IMG/VR virus record: IMGVR_UViG_3300027852_000031
Location: 26,250-90,249 of that record
Source of the DNA: a virus
DNA: 64,000 nucleotides
Direction: 5' to 3' (one strand)
Of this stretch, positions 694-28,510 are shown one piece after another. Position 1 is the stretch's first letter. Each line of letters opens with the position of its first letter. The translations under genes were made by a program, and so were the position numbers. The notes beneath the pieces were generated by a model, which saw nothing but the letters and a program-made list of their open reading frames with translations, had not been told where the DNA came from and did no database searches.

Positions 694-3600
694 GTGCCGA
701 ATAACAGCGTAACTTTAGATGATCTTTTACATGGTGCCCAAGGGGAATATGGCCATTTATTCCCATTCCGAAACAGGGTGCCAGACATAAAGAAGCATAT
801 TTTCCAGGATCTTAAACAATCTAAAGATTCGCTAGATGTGGTTGTCGCCAGACATATGTTAAACATAGACTATATAGGCTGGACGGCCAAGGCTTTGTTG
901 GGAATAGATTTGTTTCCAATTCAAATCGCAATATTGCAGATGATGTGGCAAACACCATTTCCCATGTTGATAGCTTGTCGTGGTGGTAGTAAGTCATTCA
1001 TGCTCGCTGTTTATTCAGTACTTAGAGCACTGTTAGACCCAGGTACCAAGGTAGTTATTGTCGGAGCGGGACTAAGACAAGCTAGATTGGTGTTTAACTA
1101 CATCGACACTATCTGGTCAAATTCTTCCATTTTACGACACATAGTCGGTGGTGGGAAAAAGGCTGGTCCACGACAAAATGTGGATTTATGTTATTTTAAA
1201 ATTGGCGATAGTATTATCTATGCCCTGCCAATGGGAGATGGTTGCAGTGACACTTTAACTTGTGTAACACACAAACATGGATTCGGAAGAATATCTGACG
1301 ATCAAATTCCTGGACAAACTGAACAAACCACTATTAATCGTTATGCAGAACTTTGGGGTAACAAAAAATTTAGACTAAGCGACGAGTCCTATTGCAACGG
1401 TAAGTCCCAAACCAAGAAGATACGAACTCATCACGGATTCGAATTTAATGCCACACACAACCACAAGCTAAAAATCGTCAGAGATAACAAGGCTACATGG
1501 ACTCGAATGGATGAAATTAAATCTGGTGACAGAATCTTGCTTGATCGTTCTGTTAGATGGCACGACGGTGATGTTGGTATAACAGAAGACGAGTCATATG
1601 CACTTGGACTACTGGCCGGTGATGGTAGCTATACTATACAGAAAAGAATCGCGTTTGCCACAAACGATATCGAGTTGGCTCATGCTGTACAGAAATTAGT
1701 ACCAATAAGACAATTGCCATCAGACCCACAGCACTGGACGCTATCTAGCGTAAAACACTGGAATGGCCTACTGGATAAATTCGGAATAGACAGGAATCAC
1801 TTGCCTACTAAACACAAGCAGTTCCCAACAACCATCCTTCAATCTCCGCGTCACATAACATCTGCTTTTATTTCGGGGCTGTTCGATACCGATGGTACAG
1901 TTCAAGTAACAACAGAACGCGGTGGAACACAAATAGGTATTACCTTTTACAATACCAGCAAAGAATTGGTGAGACAACTTCAATATATTCTATTACACTA
2001 CGGGATAGTCGCCCATGTGAAGTCTCGCAAACGAGATGACAAATGGGAAGAATGTTATGAATTGTCAATAACGGGTCGAGATATTTTGATTTTTGCTACC
2101 GAAATTGGGTTCAGATTAAAACGAAAACAAGCCAAGCTTTTGAGCGGTATTGAAAAGAAAAAGCGATGGATGGATCAGAACGACGAGATACCTGGCGTTC
2201 TTGGTGATATGATTGATATTTCTGAGAACAATCGAGCGCAACACGGCACTGGCAATTGTGTGTCGGTCTGTGCTGGTCGATTAAAGGTGAAAAAATCCGC
2301 TAGTCGTCCATTGGTAGATAATTTCCTACGAGTCTATGGTCACATAGATGATGAGCGTGTAGACCACATTCGTCGTCTCGCTGATCCAGACATTTATTAT
2401 GACGAAATAGTTTCTATAGAAGATGATGAATGTGTTACATTTGATGTTCATGTTCCGGATGGGCACGAATATTGCGCCAATGGGTTCTTTAGTCACAATA
2501 CCAAAATTAGAGGATTCCGTGCAAATGTAGTTATTGCCGACGAATTTGCTAGTATCCCCGAAGATGTATTTGATGTGGTCGTTCGTGGTTTCGCGGCTAC
2601 AGCCAAGACTCCAATTGAAGAAGCAAAGAAACGTGCTTTTGATAAACAATTGGCTAAACTTGATTTGCCGAATGATGTTAAAAAGAAATTGGTCACAGAT
2701 GATGGCAAATTTCATGGAAACCAGATTGTTTATTCAGGAACAGCGTATTATGCGTTTAATCATTTTGCAAAAAAATACCAGATGTGGCAAGATATAATAC
2801 ATAGCCAGGGCGATCAGGACAAAGTGTCGCAAATTTTTGGTGGTGAATATGCAATACCAGATAGTTTCAACTATAAGGATTACTCAATAATTAGGATACC
2901 ACACACCCATTTGCCAGATGGATTGTTGGATGACAGACAATTGGCGCACGCAAAAGCGACACTTCCAAAAAATATATATCTAATGGAATATGGTGCCGTT
3001 TTTGTAAAAGATTCAGATGGTTTTTTCCCTAGGAGCTTAATCGAAGGATGTACAGTAGGGCCGAATAAACCCATTATTACACCAGACGGTCCAATTACTT
3101 TTACACCATCGATGAGGGGGCAATCGAAATGTAAGTATGTAATGGGCATAGACCCTGCTGCCGAAAGAGACAATTTGGCTATTACACTAGTTGAGGTGTG
3201 GAAAAATCATTATAGGGTTGTATATTGTTGGGCTGTTAATAAGAAAGAGTTTTCGCAACGACGCAAGCGTGGTCTGATTACCGACGATGATTATTACGCC
3301 TACTGCTGTTCTAGAATACGGGAAATAGTTAAATTATTTAATCCAGTAAGAATTGAAATGGATAGCCAGGGTGGAGGCTATGCTGTGGCAGAGATGTTAA
3401 GAACTAAAAAATTGCTTGATATCGATGCTGGTGATTTCCCAATTTATGAAACAATTGATTTTGATGATCCAAAGACCACTGACGGAGAGACTGATGGTCG
3501 TCACATTTTACACCTTGTTAAGCAGAGTACTGACTTTAATCAAGACGCAAACATAGCCTTACACAAAAGTTTAGAAACTAGAACATTGCTTTTTCCAGCT

Positions 3601-4050
3601 TTTGACAGCGTCAAGATGTATGCATCCATAGAGGCAGAAAAGGCCCAGGGTATTATTTTTGATACGTTTGAAGAAAATGTATTTAATATAGAAGAATTAA
3701 AAAATGAACTTTGTACGATCCAAATGAGTGAAACTGCAACTGGGAAAGAGCGGTTCGACACACCACAGGTTGTGCGACCCGGTGCAGTCGAAGGTCGTAG
3801 TAGAAAAGGCAGACTCAAAAAAGATAGATACACAGCACTTTTATTATGCCATAAGTATATTTACGATACAGAGACTACGCCATCGACCGATATTGATTAC
3901 AATGATGTTCCAGGGAATATTGAGAAACGATCAAGACCAGGCGAGAATGAGAATATGTATCAAGGGCCGGGTGTCGGAAGAATGAGAAATGCTAGTAGTA
4001 CACGCAATGGGGGCATATTTAAGGCTGTTAAAAAGGGTAAAAGAATTTAG
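694..4050 (+). CDS. terL: Terminase large subunit, intein-containing
   Basis: Walker A-like ACRGGSKSF; after intein removal GDG-TKIRGFRANVVIADEF (Walker B); RNase H-like nuclease motifs MGIDPA, EMDSQGGG, KKDRYTA; directly upstream of portal. Confidence 0.93.
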   Translation: MPNNSVTLDDLLHGAQGEYGHLFPFRNRVPDIKKHIFQDLKQSKDSLDVVVARHMLNIDYIGWTAKALLGIDLFPIQIAILQMMWQTPFPMLIACRGGSKSFMLAVYSVLRALLDPGTKVVIVGAGLRQARLVFNYIDTIWSNSSILRHIVGGGKKAGPRQNVDLCYFKIGDSIIYALPMGDGCSDTLTCVTHKHGFGRISDDQIPGQTEQTTINRYAELWGNKKFRLSDESYCNGKSQTKKIRTHHGFEFNATHNHKLKIVRDNKATWTRMDEIKSGDRILLDRSVRWHDGDVGITEDESYALGLLAGDGSYTIQKRIAFATNDIELAHAVQKLVPIRQLPSDPQHWTLSSVKHWNGLLDKFGIDRNHLPTKHKQFPTTILQSPRHITSAFISGLFDTDGTVQVTTERGGTQIGITFYNTSKELVRQLQYILLHYGIVAHVKSRKRDDKWEECYELSITGRDILIFATEIGFRLKRKQAKLLSGIEKKKRWMDQNDEIPGVLGDMIDISENNRAQHGTGNCVSVCAGRLKVKKSASRPLVDNFLRVYGHIDDERVDHIRRLADPDIYYDEIVSIEDDECVTFDVHVPDGHEYCANGFFSHNTKIRGFRANVVIADEFASIPEDVFDVVVRGFAATAKTPIEEAKKRAFDKQLAKLDLPNDVKKKLVTDDGKFHGNQIVYSGTAYYAFNHFAKKYQMWQDIIHSQGDQDKVSQIFGGEYAIPDSFNYKDYSIIRIPHTHLPDGLLDDRQLAHAKATLPKNIYLMEYGAVFVKDSDGFFPRSLIEGCTVGPNKPIITPDGPITFTPSMRGQSKCKYVMGIDPAAERDNLAITLVEVWKNHYRVVYCWAVNKKEFSQRRKRGLITDDDYYAYCCSRIREIVKLFNPVRIEMDSQGGGYAVAEMLRTKKLLDIDAGDFPIYETIDFDDPKTTDGETDGRHILHLVKQSTDFNQDANIALHKSLETRTLLFPAFDSVKMYASIEAEKAQGIIFDTFEENVFNIEELKNELCTIQMSETATGKERFDTPQVVRPGAVEGRSRKGRLKKDRYTALLLCHKYIYDTETTPSTDIDYNDVPGNIEKRSRPGENENMYQGPGVGRMRNASSTRNGGIFKAVKKGKRI
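1243..2499 (+). mobile_element. Intein (419 aa) with LAGLIDADG homing endonuclease, in terL
   Basis: Starts with Cys (CSDTLT), ends FFSHN followed by Thr(+1); internal motifs YALGLLAGDGS and FISGLFDTDGT; excision restores a continuous terminase motif. Confidence 0.93.
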
Positions 4051-24261: not shown

Positions 24262-24861
24262 ATGGGACACTATGAAATGAACAATTTTGACTTACCAAGC
24301 AATCTATTTGATCTAGAAGCAGCAATACAGGCTGCTGGCGTTTTGTTGCGTGAACATATGTCTTGGCAAACTGACTATAAACGATTATTAAAATTGCTTT
24401 ATATTTCGGATAGAGAATGCCTGCGAAGTGGCGGATATATGATTACATGGGATCGTTCTATTTCTACCACATTCGGTCCGGTGCCACAAAAAATTGATGA
24501 ATTAATGATAGGCCAAGCTATTGATATTGTTGATTGGGATAAATTTTTTGAGCGACGTAACACGGAGATAAGACTAAAAGAACACCCAGGGATAGGTAGC
24601 TTATCAAAATTTCAGATCGACATACTACAAGCAGTAGCTAAAAAATTTATCGATTTTAGCGATGGGGAATTGACACAATATTGTATGACCAATTATCGTG
24701 AGTATTATTCTGGTTGTTGTCTCCGACCTATCTTAGTTAGAGATATTTTGTTACAAATTGGATTCTCGTTGTCTAAGGCTAATGATATAATGAGTGAAAT
24801 TGGGTGTCGATCTATGGCAAACAAATTTTTTAGTACTACAGACAAACCGAATAAATCATAA
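24262..24861 (+). CDS. Panacea (SocA/DUF4065) domain antitoxin-like protein
   Basis: KRLLKLLYISDRECL...ITWD...FGPVP matches the Panacea signature (KLLY...GPV). Confidence 0.75.
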   Translation: MGHYEMNNFDLPSNLFDLEAAIQAAGVLLREHMSWQTDYKRLLKLLYISDRECLRSGGYMITWDRSISTTFGPVPQKIDELMIGQAIDIVDWDKFFERRNTEIRLKEHPGIGSLSKFQIDILQAVAKKFIDFSDGELTQYCMTNYREYYSGCCLRPILVRDILLQIGFSLSKANDIMSEIGCRSMANKFFSTTDKPNKS

Positions 24862-24869
24862 ACGGCGAT

Positions 24870-25466
24870 ATGAATATGCACCATAAAATTTTATTTACAG
24901 AATCTGAAATACAGAAACGTATTTCTGAGCTAGCCAAGGAGATAGATTCATATTACCGGTCAGATGATTTGTATAGCACATCGAACCAGCCGTTATTGAT
25001 AGTCAGTATTCTTTCTGGTTCAGTATTCTTCGCTGTAGATTTGGTTCGTCAACTGTCTATTGGTGTAGAACTGGAATTCGTTAAAGTATCAACTTATCCA
25101 GATGGACAGACAATAGCTCAAGATCCAAAGATTGTTGTCCCACTATCCAGGAAAAGGCTACACGATGTCTGCATATTACTTATTGACGACATATTAGACA
25201 CTGGTGTGACTTTAAACGCAATCAAGAATCAGGTAGCGTGGCCGTACAGGGATAATGTAAAGTCTGCTGTGTTATTGAAGAAGAATACGATCAAACCACA
25301 AATTCAGTCTGCAGATTTTGTTGGATTTGAAATACCAGATGTTTTCGTTTATGGATATGGCTTAGATTTAGGTGGACTACAGAGAGAGTTGCCACATATA
25401 GTATCTTGTGATGATTGTGAAATTAAAGATGAGGAGATCGGAGTAGAATGGACACAAAAAAGATAA
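24870..25466 (+). CDS. hpt: Hypoxanthine-guanine phosphoribosyltransferase
   Basis: ILFTESEIQKRISELAKEI, ILSGSVFFAVDL, PRPP loop LLIDDILDTGVTL, VGFEIPDVFVYGYGLD. Confidence 0.92.
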   Translation: MNMHHKILFTESEIQKRISELAKEIDSYYRSDDLYSTSNQPLLIVSILSGSVFFAVDLVRQLSIGVELEFVKVSTYPDGQTIAQDPKIVVPLSRKRLHDVCILLIDDILDTGVTLNAIKNQVAWPYRDNVKSAVLLKKNTIKPQIQSADFVGFEIPDVFVYGYGLDLGGLQRELPHIVSCDDCEIKDEEIGVEWTQKR

Positions 25467-25705
25467 AACAACAATTGGCCCAGATTAAAAATGCCACTGG
25501 TACGAAACATGTTAAAACTCTAATTTTTGAATTGTGCTCTGTTGTGGATAAACTGATTATAGAAGTTGATAGAATCCAAAATCCTCCGACTGTCGTATTG
25601 CGTAGTCAACCCAACGATGTAGAAGCTAACATTCCTGGATTTATGCCAGTTGTGTCGTCGAAAGATGGGTGTAGTCCAGGAACCAATAATGATGAGGCAA
25701 AATAA
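25448..25705 (+). CDS. Hypothetical protein
   Basis: 85-aa ORF coupled to its neighbours. Confidence 0.55.
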   Translation: MDTKKIKQQLAQIKNATGTKHVKTLIFELCSVVDKLIIEVDRIQNPPTVVLRSQPNDVEANIPGFMPVVSSKDGCSPGTNNDEAK

Positions 25706-26697
25706 TGTTTGATATTAAGTCACATACCTGCGATGTTGTATCGGTTAGGCTTGAGACGCATCCAAATGCCGATTCTTTGAGCCTAGTCATGATAGGCGAT
25801 TTCCAATGTGTTGTTAGAACAGCTGATTGGAATGATGGAGATTTAGGAATTTACATTCCGCCAGACAGCATAGTTCCGGATAATGACACCTTTGCATTCC
25901 TCGGTAGACACAGGAGAATTAAAGCCAGAAAGCTTAGGGGCGAATGGTCTGTTGGGTTATTGATTCCAGCACCATCAGGAGCCAAGATTGGTGATGATTA
26001 TATGGAACCACTTGGTGTTGTTCATTATGACCCAGAAGTCAAGGGTCGATTTACAACTGGCGGCGACAACATACGGTTACCAAAACCTCCAAAAGAAACA
26101 TCACAGAGTGGTATTTATATGCCCGTATATGATGTCATGAATTTTCGTAAGTATTCGCGATTGTTTGATGAGGGGGAAGAAGTTGCTGTCACCGAAAAAA
26201 TCCACGGGGTAAATGCTAGGTTTGTTTGTATCGACGATCAAATGTATTGTGGATCTAGACGATATTGGAAAAAAGAAGACAAGAATAGCTTATGGTGGAA
26301 AGCTCTGAACAATTCAGATGCCGTAAAAGCATGGTTGAGACACAATCAAGATACAGTATTGTATGGAGAGGTGTTTGGTGCTGTACAAAGTTTAAAATAC
26401 GGTGCCGCCAATGGCGAAATTTTCTTAGCTATTTTTGATATTATGCAGAATGGTGAATGGGTTGATTACGACAGCGCCAGAGCATTCGGAGCTGCGCTGC
26501 CGTGGGTACCACGGGTATATCGTGGTCCGTATGACAAAGATAAGATTCTTGAATTAGCCGAAGGCGATAGTATTTGGCCGGGTGCCAACCATCATGCAGA
26601 GGGAGTTGTGGTAAAACCAATAACTGAGAGAACAGATCCGAAGATTGGTCGTGTCCAATTAAAGGTGGTAAGTAACCGATATTTGAGTAAAAGCTAA
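25705..26697 (+). CDS. ATP-dependent RNA ligase (DRB0094-like) with N-terminal tRNA-binding-type OB domain
   Basis: Motif I TEKIHG, YGEVFG, EGVVVKP, LKVVSNRYL; N-terminal HPNADSL...KLRGEWSVGLL resembles the PheT/Trbp111 OB fold. Confidence 0.88.
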   Translation: MFDIKSHTCDVVSVRLETHPNADSLSLVMIGDFQCVVRTADWNDGDLGIYIPPDSIVPDNDTFAFLGRHRRIKARKLRGEWSVGLLIPAPSGAKIGDDYMEPLGVVHYDPEVKGRFTTGGDNIRLPKPPKETSQSGIYMPVYDVMNFRKYSRLFDEGEEVAVTEKIHGVNARFVCIDDQMYCGSRRYWKKEDKNSLWWKALNNSDAVKAWLRHNQDTVLYGEVFGAVQSLKYGAANGEIFLAIFDIMQNGEWVDYDSARAFGAALPWVPRVYRGPYDKDKILELAEGDSIWPGANHHAEGVVVKPITERTDPKIGRVQLKVVSNRYLSKS

Positions 26698-26927
26698 TGG
26701 GAAAAATTTATCGAATTATCAGATGGATTATGTGTTTTTTCGGCAAACATGAATATTGGTGTCGTGCACGTATAGGTGTATTCCGGGCAGAAGATCAATG
26801 TATCAATTGTGGCAAAACAGTTTTATACTATTCGCCAGAATATCTTATCAAATATAGACACGATGTTTATTGGTATGAGAGCCCAATTGTCAGAAAACAC
26901 CAAGTAGAAAGGGTTAATGATGCTTAA
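26697..26927 (+). CDS. Small Cys/His protein (DUF1660-like)
   Basis: MCFFGKHEYW...CINCG pattern. Confidence 0.5.
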   Translation: MGKIYRIIRWIMCFFGKHEYWCRARIGVFRAEDQCINCGKTVLYYSPEYLIKYRHDVYWYESPIVRKHQVERVNDA

Positions 26928-27384
26928 TTTTACGTCCGGCAATATGTTTGAAATTGATGCTGATATTTTGATTAATACTGTTAACTGTGTCGGCGTGATG
27001 GGTTGTGGTGTTGCGTTAGCATTCAAGAATAAATATCCAGAAATGTTTCAATCTTATAGGCGTATATGTAAGAGAAAAACCAATACATTGTTGCCAGGAA
27101 TGATTCATGAATATAAAACACAAGATGACAAAACTGTTCTTAACTTTGCCACAAAAAATCATTGGAAGAATCCATCCGAATATTCATACGTCGAATCTGG
27201 TTTGAAAAGATTACAATCTTGGCTATCTGGATGTAAATCTGGCACAACCGTTGCGCTGCCAGCACTCGGATGTGGCCATGGTGGTCTCGATTGGTCGATT
27301 GTCCGACAAATGATCGAGCAATATCTTGGCGATTTAGACAATGTCCAAATTTACGTATTTCAACCACAGGATTCTAGGAGATAA
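26917..27384 (+). CDS. Macrodomain ADP-ribosylhydrolase, DarG-like
   Basis: NTVNCVGVMGCGVA, NFATKNHWKNPS, ALPALGCGHGGLDW. Confidence 0.88.
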   Translation: MMLNFTSGNMFEIDADILINTVNCVGVMGCGVALAFKNKYPEMFQSYRRICKRKTNTLLPGMIHEYKTQDDKTVLNFATKNHWKNPSEYSYVESGLKRLQSWLSGCKSGTTVALPALGCGHGGLDWSIVRQMIEQYLGDLDNVQIYVFQPQDSRR

Positions 27385-27386
27385 AA

Positions 27387-27686
27387 ATGCCATATATACC
27401 GAAGGAAAACAGAGAACACTACGACGAATTAATCGAATCGTTGGCAAAACATTTAGCAGAAGTTCGATTGCGTGGTGGGAATAGTGCCATAGCAGGCGAA
27501 CTCAACTACATTATTTATCGTCTGACTTATATTCTATGTCACCATTCTCCCGGAACCAGTATTGGTTATGCCGGAATAGCAACTATTCTATCTGCAATGA
27601 ATGAAGCCCAAAGCGAATTGCGTCGTCGAGTTTTAGTACCATACGAAGATAACAAAATACTGCAGAACGGTGATGTATCTATATAG
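27387..27686 (+). CDS. Conserved phage protein of unknown function
   Basis: MPYI...GELNYII...ELRRRVLVPYEDNKILQNGDV pattern recurrent in phage genomes. Confidence 0.7.
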   Translation: MPYIPKENREHYDELIESLAKHLAEVRLRGGNSAIAGELNYIIYRLTYILCHHSPGTSIGYAGIATILSAMNEAQSELRRRVLVPYEDNKILQNGDVSI

Positions 27687-27850
27687 CCAATAAATTCAAG
27701 GTTGGTCAAATTTGGTACGGTAGAAATATAAAAATTCGTATATTACATGTCGGTGTAGGTATTTTGACAGTTGAGAGACTCGATTTAGGACAGCCGACGA
27801 TAAAATTGATGTGGTGTATAGATAGTATGAAGGGGATGTCTTTATCATAG
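27683..27850 (+). CDS. 55-codon ORF with apparent non-canonical ATA start
   Basis: (I/M)ANKFKVGQIWYGRNIKIRILHVG...; no upstream ATG/GTG/TTG in frame; GGTGA 9 nt upstream; overlaps the previous TAG. Confidence 0.45.
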   Translation: MANKFKVGQIWYGRNIKIRILHVGVGILTVERLDLGQPTIKLMWCIDSMKGMSLS

Positions 27851-27947
27851 TTGTATCCTACCGGACGCGATAGGATAGTTAGCTTATCTACCATGTGTAG
27901 AAAAAGTATTAGACACCGATGTACAACTGAATAGGTCGGTGTCGGTT

Positions 27948-28020
27948 TGCGGGGTAGAGCAGTGGTTAGCTTGTCTGTTTCATAAGCAGAAGGTCGTCAG
28001 TTCGAATCTGACCCCCGCTA
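27948..28020 (+). tRNA. tRNA-Met(CAT), initiator-type body with atypical anticodon stem
   Basis: Full cloverleaf: acceptor TGCGGGG/CCCCGCT, D stem GAGC/GCTT, anticodon arm TCTGT-TTCATAA-GCAGA, T arm GTCAG-TTCGAAT-CTGAC, A73; no encoded CCA. Confidence 0.93.
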
Positions 28021-28026
28021 TTTGTT

Positions 28027-28173
28027 GACGATGGTAAGTGCTGATTTGTTAGGGTGGCACGCAACAGGAGTTGGCTGTACGGCGGGGTGTTCCGATTCAA
28101 CCGCCATGCCAAAATCAGGACCATAGGGCAAAAGTATATGCACGGAACTGTTGTTCGAATCAACCCATCGTCG
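28027..28173 (+). ncRNA. tRNA-like RNA with 8-bp acceptor stem, 4-bp T stem and ~115-nt structured interior
   Basis: GACGATGG/CCATCGTC, GTTG-TTCGAAT-CAAC, U8-A9 equivalents, G discriminator, then a T-rich run; 6 nt after tRNA-Met. Confidence 0.65.
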
Positions 28174-28201: not shown

Positions 28202-28510
28202 ATGTTAAAAGTGCAATATGGCGACACAGAAGTTCGGGTTAAATTTGATCACAGAATTTTAGATCCTATACAAATCCACGATCTATCTGGTACTTGTGTT
28301 GACGAAGACAGGAAATGTTCATTAGCTACTATTGAGATACATACTGTGAATAATGTATCACAATATAAAGGTATTTCTATTTGTCATCCAGATGATAATT
28401 TTTGTAGAGCCACTGGACGAAAAATAGCGCTGTCGTTTGCAATGTACGTTTTTAGCAAACCAATGCGAAAAGCAGTGTGGAAAAAATATATAGAAACGTG
28501 TAATAGCTAA
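28202..28510 (+). CDS. Hypothetical phage protein
   Basis: GGAGA RBS before ATG 28202; GISICHPDDNFCRATGRKIAL motif of a common small phage family. Confidence 0.65.
   Translation: MLKVQYGDTEVRVKFDHRILDPIQIHDLSGTCVDEDRKCSLATIEIHTVNNVSQYKGISICHPDDNFCRATGRKIALSFAMYVFSKPMRKAVWKKYIETCNS

Follow-up and report, generated by a model that had tools for sequence, protein, structure and literature searches.

A conserved, previously uncatalogued tRNA-shaped RNA, predicted to be non-decoding, from uncultured phage genomes

The locus and its annotation

The stretch of DNA analysed in this study, referred to here as the window, covers 64,000 nucleotides of the 166-kb record of an uncultured virus, which derives from a marine metagenome and for most of whose genes there is no PHROG family; the sequencing runs listed comprise one of DNA and none of RNA. 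Between protein-coding genes, on the plus strand of the window, lies a tRNA-Met(CAU) gene (27947-28021), called by ARAGORN and matched by the Rfam tRNA model (RF00005, 62.4 bits), which is followed after 5 nt by a further tRNA-shaped gene, the element described here. The element is 147 nt long (28027-28173, plus strand), counting the discriminator G28173, and scores 157 bits with the covariance model R1. Neither the tRNA-Met nor the element has an encoded CCA, and the discriminator of the element is followed by a T-rich trailer, as had been stated in a preliminary description made from the sequence alone.

Upstream of these two genes, and also on the plus strand, are genes for a Panacea/SocA antitoxin-domain protein (24262-24861), a phosphoribosyltransferase (24870-25466), an RNA ligase (25705-26697; PF09414 and a PHA02142 OB fold), which ends 1.3 kb upstream of the element, a Macro-domain protein (26917-27384; PF01661, with the PHROG label 'phosphatase') and a DUF6899 protein (27387-27686). 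The ligase is thus set within a cluster of Panacea, phosphoribosyltransferase, ligase and Macro genes, and the whole interval from 24262 to 27686 reads as a series of genes with likely roles in counter-defence or RNA repair. Downstream, 28 nt past the element, is the gene for a small protein (28202-28510, plus strand) in which the motifs CHPxDNFC and GRK are invariant; its family, large and unannotated, has 1999 representatives at E<=1e-3 and no Pfam or PHROG model.

The tRNA-Met is preceded by a 260-nt non-coding leader (27690-27946, plus strand). At approximately 27812-27824 this leader contains GTGGTGTATAGAT, which resembles GTGGTGTATAATC upstream of the genes on contig L028, one of the contigs introduced below, and may be a phage promoter motif. 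Searches for sigma-70 promoter and intrinsic terminator signals returned none above shuffled sequences.

The element is not recognised by the annotation tools in common use. ARAGORN, run with and without introns (0-200 nt), called only the neighbouring tRNA-Met, and Rfam, at the gathering threshold as well as at E<=10, matched only 27947-28021; on the element itself the tRNA, tmRNA and YrlA models were negative and there was no group I intron match. This is the outcome that the preliminary description had expected of ARAGORN and Rfam. A BLAST search of 50,697 phage records with the element and with its counterpart from contig L032 returned only the tRNA-Met part or noise. As the locus demonstrates, genes of this type escape standard tRNA and RNA-family annotation altogether.

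Homologues and a covarying fold

Together with four homologues in uncultured phage contigs, the element forms a family of five. The member on L004 (5139-5309) was reached from the Macro protein as an anchor and then with nhmmer; that on L032 (8541-8691, minus strand) with a degenerate DNA pattern; that on L057 (918-1063; 97 bits) through a profile of the downstream protein run over 1.84 billion proteins, followed by contig look-ups; and that on L028 (4580-4716; 34 bits) with model R1, on a much more distant phage contig, the other four members being fairly close to one another. Covariance-model E-values across the members range from 1e-7 to 1e-42, and each genome carries a single copy. Pairwise global nucleotide identity between the elements is 57-72%, only modestly higher than the 54-62% found for the neighbouring gene. 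Their lengths range from 137 to 171 nt and the differences are not multiples of three, so that a conserved open reading frame does not explain the conservation; a protein-coding reading was rejected on the same lengths and on the pairwise nature of the substitutions.

Further searches suggest that the family is real but rare in the data within reach, as they yielded these five members or chance hits. DNA-pattern scans of IMG/VR and of the JGI metagenomes returned known members and chance matches only, the latter being L030, L031, L033-L039, L042, L044, L045 and L048, and a pattern scan across 185,579 species genomes produced nine candidates, none of them confirmed by the covariance model. The protein anchors (Macro protein, downstream protein and the ligase of L028) led to L004 and L028 only, a word-index homologue search returned the query itself, and model R2 found no new member in four other large phage records and 36 loci.

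For the analysis of the fold, four sequences were parsed helix by helix and L057 by eye, and base pairs were counted on model-based alignments of four and of five sequences. In the five-sequence alignment, 95.1% of cells are standard pairs compared with 31-50% after the 3' partners have been shifted by one to three columns, and 20 of the 38 pairs are changed on both sides compared with 2-6 after the same shift, counts that are inflated because the alignments, of five sequences of which four are related, were fitted to the model. None of 500 shuffles (0/500) reached any of the covariation measures, and the four-sequence count gave the same picture. The order of parts supported by these counts is an acceptor stem, a D arm, a short hairpin (hp2), a pseudoknotted domain at the position of the variable arm and a T arm.

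The perfect 8-bp terminal stem of the preliminary description is present in the window, with GACGATGG at 28027-28034 opposite CCATCGTC at 28165-28172, the 3' strand and the discriminator together occupying 28165-28173; T-A follows the 5' strand, as also noted there. Over the family, 97.5% of cells in this stem are paired, with changes on both sides in four of its eight pairs. The T arm (28150-28164) was likewise described correctly for the window, consisting of GTTG (28150-28153), the loop TTCGAAT (28154-28160) and CAAC (28161-28164); 95% of its cells are paired and two pairs are changed on both sides. An acceptor-like stem of 7-8 bp and a T arm with a UUCGAAU or GUCGAAUC loop are found in all five members. 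The combination of 8 and 4 bp, on the other hand, is peculiar to the window: in L057 the split is 8/5, the 5-bp T stem closing a canonical loop of 7 nt; it is also 8/5 in L004 and L032, where the loop measures 6 nt; and in L028 it is 7/5 and includes one mismatch.

The counterpart of the D arm (28038-28060) pairs GTGCT with GGCAC (28038-28042 with 28056-28060) around a 13-nt loop, and is paired in 100% of cells with both-side changes in three of five pairs. Its loop is 10-13 nt long in the family and contains GTTRGG in all five members, and both stem and loop exceed the usual tRNA size. In tRNAs, it is the GG of the D loop that docks on the T loop. One nucleotide after this arm, exactly where an anticodon arm would begin, comes hp2 (28062-28073), CAAC-AGGA-GTTG (28062-28065 with 28070-28073), which is paired in 100% of cells and changed on both sides in three of four pairs. 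This covarying hairpin displaces the ACAG/CTGT pairing proposed earlier.

Between hp2 and the T arm lies a domain of 75-100 nt that holds a pseudoknot and a hairpin with a GGACC loop. Its first helix, hp3 (28081-28105), is the GGCGG/CCGCC pairing that had been proposed; the helix persists, with 92% of cells paired, but its changes are one-sided (G-U) and 0 of its pairs are changed on both sides, so that it is consistent with pairing but not proven. The loop of hp3 bears the 5' strand (GTTCCG, 28089-28094) of a 6-bp long-range helix whose 3' strand (CGGAAC, 28143-28148) lies 1 nt 5' of the T stem. This helix, which the preliminary description had missed, is paired in 100% of cells and changed on both sides in three of its six pairs, being kept through GC, CG and UA swaps: GTTCCG/CGGAAC in the window corresponds to GTTCCC/GGGAAC in L032 and to GTTCTT/AAGAAC in L057, the last contributing two new compensatory pairs. 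On this covariation, hp3 and the long-range helix together constitute a predicted H-type pseudoknot in which the hp3 loop pairs with the strand 5' of the T arm.

The second hairpin of the domain, hp4 (28107-28130), has in the curated pair table a TGCC/GGCA stem (28107-28110 with 28127-28130) and, in the window, a 16-nt loop with GGACC at 28118-28122. The stem sequence is different in all five members and the pairing is kept in each, whilst the loop, of 14-18 nt, carries GGACC invariably (5/5). A comparison of members places a joiner of variable length, hp5, at 28131-28142; it is minimal in the window and a hairpin of 17-35 nt in L032 and L004. All of the interior complements listed in the preliminary description do exist, but three of the five are replaced by other pairings, for CTGATTT/AAATCAG and TGGCA/TGCCA are not conserved and the local D-arm hairpin and the hp4 stem take their place. 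The helices of the model are 1.4-7.4 kcal/mol away from the unconstrained minimum free energy of each sequence, taking the better of two nested versions, as hp3 and the pseudoknot helix exclude each other in nested folding. As an antisense seed the GGACC loop was rejected, its complement showing no enrichment in the phage genome, and a derivation of the tRNA-like frame from a particular tRNA isotype was likewise dismissed, since the best local matches vary by member and reflect the T loop only.

Could the element be a decayed tRNA, or no more than complementary segments that happen to lie beside a real tRNA? Taken singly, the window sequence would allow this: its fold is no stabler than shuffled sequences (z = -0.99), and in a 64-kb window, chance alone should produce about 1.9 cases of an 8-bp stem abutting any hairpin of 4 bp and a loop of 7 nt, with one such arrangement on the minus strand of this one, so that the 8/4 geometry alone is not significant. 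The element stands out as non-random through its exact T-loop consensus, the tRNA lying 5 nt upstream of it and, most of all, its four covarying homologues. With five members on different phage contigs that are too divergent to be assembly copies, 20 compensatory pairs, invariant loop motifs and the E-values given above, decay or chance is barely credible. The homologue search with covariation proposed in the preliminary description had a positive outcome, the terminal stems being kept with compensatory changes in the four homologues. The family is, as far as sequence comparison can establish it, a real, conserved and previously uncatalogued tRNA-shaped, non-decoding RNA.

Decoding capacity and known tRNA-like RNAs

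The loop of hp2 is only 4-5 nt across the family and thus offers no anticodon, which bears out the earlier statement that a normal anticodon arm is missing, its position being held by a 4-bp hairpin. With no anticodon, and an extra knotted domain instead, the element is predicted to be unable to read codons. Of the features of a canonical tRNA (RF00005), an acceptor stem with T arm and a D arm with GG are present and an anticodon arm is absent. In the window, the hp3 loop (28095-28101) reads A-U-UCA-A-C after the 6-bp helix and so looks like a UGA anticodon loop; as an anticodon it was rejected, for both the equivalent of U33 and the triplet differ in four of four homologues.

This look-alike is among the points that would fit an aberrant but working tRNA, charged and decoding, whether of the tRNA-Sec or allo-tRNA kind with a giant variable arm or a precursor rejoined by a ligase. 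An 8-bp acceptor stem with a T stem of 4 or 5 bp recalls allo-tRNAs and bacterial tRNA-Sec, the discriminator is G in the window, and an RNA ligase gene is nearby. Such a tRNA is nonetheless very unlikely, as the hp3 loop is not conserved and the hp2 loops, of 4-5 nt, vary in size; the D arm and the 6-bp helix are separated by additional helices; covariation in the interior is that of a folded domain and not of a spacer; and the element was passed over by ARAGORN with introns of 0-200 nt and by the Rfam tRNA model at E<=10. The earlier suggestion of a tRNA precursor with an unusual intron falls for similar reasons, because no excision yields a 7-nt anticodon loop, the interior is under structural selection, and no anticodon-like loop is conserved.

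Allo-tRNAs and tRNA-Sec (8/4, 9/3 and 8/5) are decoding tRNAs with a normal anticodon arm. The element resembles them in its 8-bp acceptor stem, its 12 or 13 stacked pairs and its large insertion at the variable arm, but it lacks the anticodon arm and its geometry is inconstant (8/4, 8/5 and 7/5). The link to allo-tRNAs that the preliminary description had drawn from the 8/4 branch of the window therefore fails.

Like tmRNA, the element combines a tRNA-like acceptor/T domain with additional pseudoknotted RNA and lacks an anticodon. It had been stated earlier that the G3-U70 pair of tmRNA is absent, and this holds: the third pair is C-G in four members and U-G, in the reversed orientation, in L004. 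Since the element also has no tag reading frame, is about 2.5 times smaller and is negative with ARAGORN and with RF00023, identity with tmRNA was rejected. The phage of contig L004, a 160-kb relative, has a separate and genuine tmRNA besides its element (L004:511-862, plus strand; RF00023, 132.9 bits), about 4 kb upstream of the tRNA slot.

Another comparable RNA is the bacterial and phage Y RNA YrlA (RF02553), which is non-decoding and mimics D and T arms; RNase P cleavage and CCA addition have been described for one member or more (Chen et al., 2014, PMC4201824). YrlA genes are found in neighbourhoods of RNA repair and surveillance, and YrlA is present in some phages (PMC4201824). The topology is reversed, however, as the termini of YrlA form the Ro60-binding stem with the tRNA-like module internal, whereas the termini of the element form the acceptor stem. 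A YrlA gene would be expected no more than about 4 kb from one for Ro60 (TROVE), and no Ro60 gene is present in the five related phage records (G000-G004). Together with the lack of a match to RF02553, these differences led us to reject YrlA identity.

The closest known analogue is RNA C of phage T4 (species 1 RNA, rnaC). To our knowledge, RNA C and its neighbour RNA D (rnaD) have been without an assigned function for fifty years. Both lie immediately behind tRNA-Arg, where the T4 tRNA cluster ends, and RNA C, at 139 nt, has a closing acceptor-like stem, a T arm of CCGGG-UUCGAAU-CCCGG and no anticodon arm, so that it shares with the element (137-171 nt) a size class of about 140 nt, a terminal stem and a canonical T arm. 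The two T4 RNAs are transcribed and their role is unknown (PMC3014915, PMC9697503). In the window, L004 and L032 the element follows tRNAs in a similar manner, which is not the case in L028 and L057. The minimum free energy fold of T4 RNA C, by contrast, consists of two long hairpins without a D arm and a closing stem with two U-U mismatches, whereas the element has a D arm, a pseudoknot and the GGACC loop; models R1 and R2 gave no match on the T4 locus (L046). With its different fold and no homology detected by the models, T4 RNA C is an analogue and not a member of the family. Of the earlier proposal of a new class of tRNA mimic, then, a conserved, structured and uncatalogued family stands, whilst RNAs of this general kind have precedents in T4 RNA C and D and in YrlA.

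In engineered 'tRNA scaffold' chimeras, an RNA domain is grafted into a tRNA frame and is processed and stabilised by the tRNA enzymes. We think that the element may work in a comparable way, although the chimeras are artificial and their graft replaces the anticodon arm, whereas the element has a domain at the variable arm and a stub hairpin.

The tRNA slot, RNA ligases and a possible role

In relatives of the phage, the gene order DUF6899, one to three tRNAs, CHPxDNFC protein is conserved as a slot, whose left and right borders in the window are the protein genes at 27387-27686 and 28202-28510. The element is an optional occupant of this slot, which is kept without it in the close relatives L003, L052, L055, L056, L060 and L065. 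In L057 the element is alone in the slot and in L028 it is alone in a different neighbourhood; as no tRNA adjoins it in either, it would be an independent gene. In L004 and L032 it is preceded by tRNAs and by a second, unrelated structured RNA, and this order of tRNA, companion RNA and element mirrors the tRNA-Arg, RNA D and RNA C of T4. The companion (L004:5001-5138, plus strand; L032:8692-8836, minus strand) is a conserved non-coding RNA of about 135 nt that sits between the last tRNA and the element, with four compensatory pairs in the two sequences; it has no Rfam match and is absent from the genome of the window.

These observations are best accounted for if the element is an independent gene whose product is a small, tRNA-shaped RNA without a decoding role, a reading to which we give a probability of roughly 55%. 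The enzymes that mature tRNAs, namely RNase P, the CCA-adding enzyme and those that trim the 3' end, identify their substrates by the acceptor/T stack and the D/T elbow. Since the element retains both, it would most likely be excised from the transcript of the tRNA slot and given CCA by host enzymes, like the neighbouring phage tRNAs, none of which has an encoded CCA. Addition of CCA would fall to the host because a phage CCA-adding enzyme is absent from the five related phage records. By analogy with tRNA processing, the matured RNA would then accumulate as a stable, trans-acting RNA off the decoding pathway, and the pseudoknot and GGACC-loop domain would be its working end, binding a partner.

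The close spacing to the next gene raises the possibility of an action in cis instead, in which the element is tRNA-like punctuation or a leader: an RNase P cut would fix the 5' terminus of the downstream mRNA or the 3' terminus of the tRNA transcript; alternatively, the structure would regulate the gene that follows. A gene does start 17-41 nt past the discriminator in all five members, with a ribosome-binding site in the trailer, and tRNA-like t-elements that set mRNA ends in plant mitochondria provide a precedent (PMC1920247). The identity of that gene varies, however, between the CHPxDNFC protein (three members), DUF4406/DUF7768 (L032) and another small ORF (L028), and the same downstream gene is found in relatives without the element. 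A punctuation signal, moreover, needs neither a conserved pseudoknot nor an invariant GGACC loop, and we consider cis action to be quite unlikely.

Under the preferred reading of a free-standing, trans-acting RNA, the hint as to its partner may come from RNA ligases. A ligase gene lies within about 0.6-1.3 kb of the element in four members, the distant L028 included, whilst the 1.6-kb contig of L057 is too short to show one. The same ligase gene is upstream in the window, L004 and L032; in L028 a T4 Rnl1-type ligase (PF09511) starts 0.56 kb downstream in an otherwise different neighbourhood, and the ligases near the element thus belong to two different families. Phage systems for RNA repair and for NAD/ADP-ribose counter-defence include RNA ligases and Macro domains among their components (PMC7824862). 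The repeated proximity to a ligase gene gives the sole hint of function and may be plain synteny, as relatives keep the genes without the RNA, which weakens the link, and L028 is the only independent context for the adjacency.

Based on the four members near a ligase, on the two ligase families and on the counter-defence cluster of the window, the partner might belong to the conflict over tRNA damage and repair, a possibility worth raising even if the odds are against it. The RNA would then be either a mimic that occupies a tRNA-targeting enzyme of the host or a platform for the phage ligase. A fuller version, which we regard as unlikely and put forward tentatively, has the RNA serve as the RNA subunit of a phage module for counter-defence against tRNA damage, matured by the host and either soaking up a host enzyme or recruiting the ligase. 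In such a module, the stack of 12-13 bp and the missing anticodon would keep the RNA off the ribosome, and the pseudoknot/GGACC domain would soak up a host enzyme that attacks the acceptor end or elbow of tRNAs or, alternatively, would bring the neighbouring phage RNA ligase to broken tRNAs. If true, the module would correspond, on the phage side, to the Ro/Y-RNA repair platforms, with the construction reversed.

Phage tRNA genes are now viewed as weapons against the tRNA-cleaving defences of the host. The present family would be a second one, unrelated to T4 RNA C and D but placed like them, with a covarying fold, a pseudoknotted domain and ligases beside four of its five members. Two unrelated families suggest that non-decoding tRNA mimics may be a recurring tool of phages and not an oddity of T4, and the family, its members being about 150 nt long and having an invariant loop motif of 5 nt, is a compact object for testing.

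Two further features of this phage are recorded here. Within the window, an ORF of 1118 amino acids (694-4050, plus strand) has split matches to the terminase large subunit with HNH and endonuclease matches between them, and looks like a terminase gene with an intein or homing-endonuclease insertion. Elsewhere in the same phage genome (G000:C1:162976-163056, minus strand), ARAGORN called a tRNA with a four-base anticodon (cgcg), which could be frameshift-suppressor-like or aberrant.
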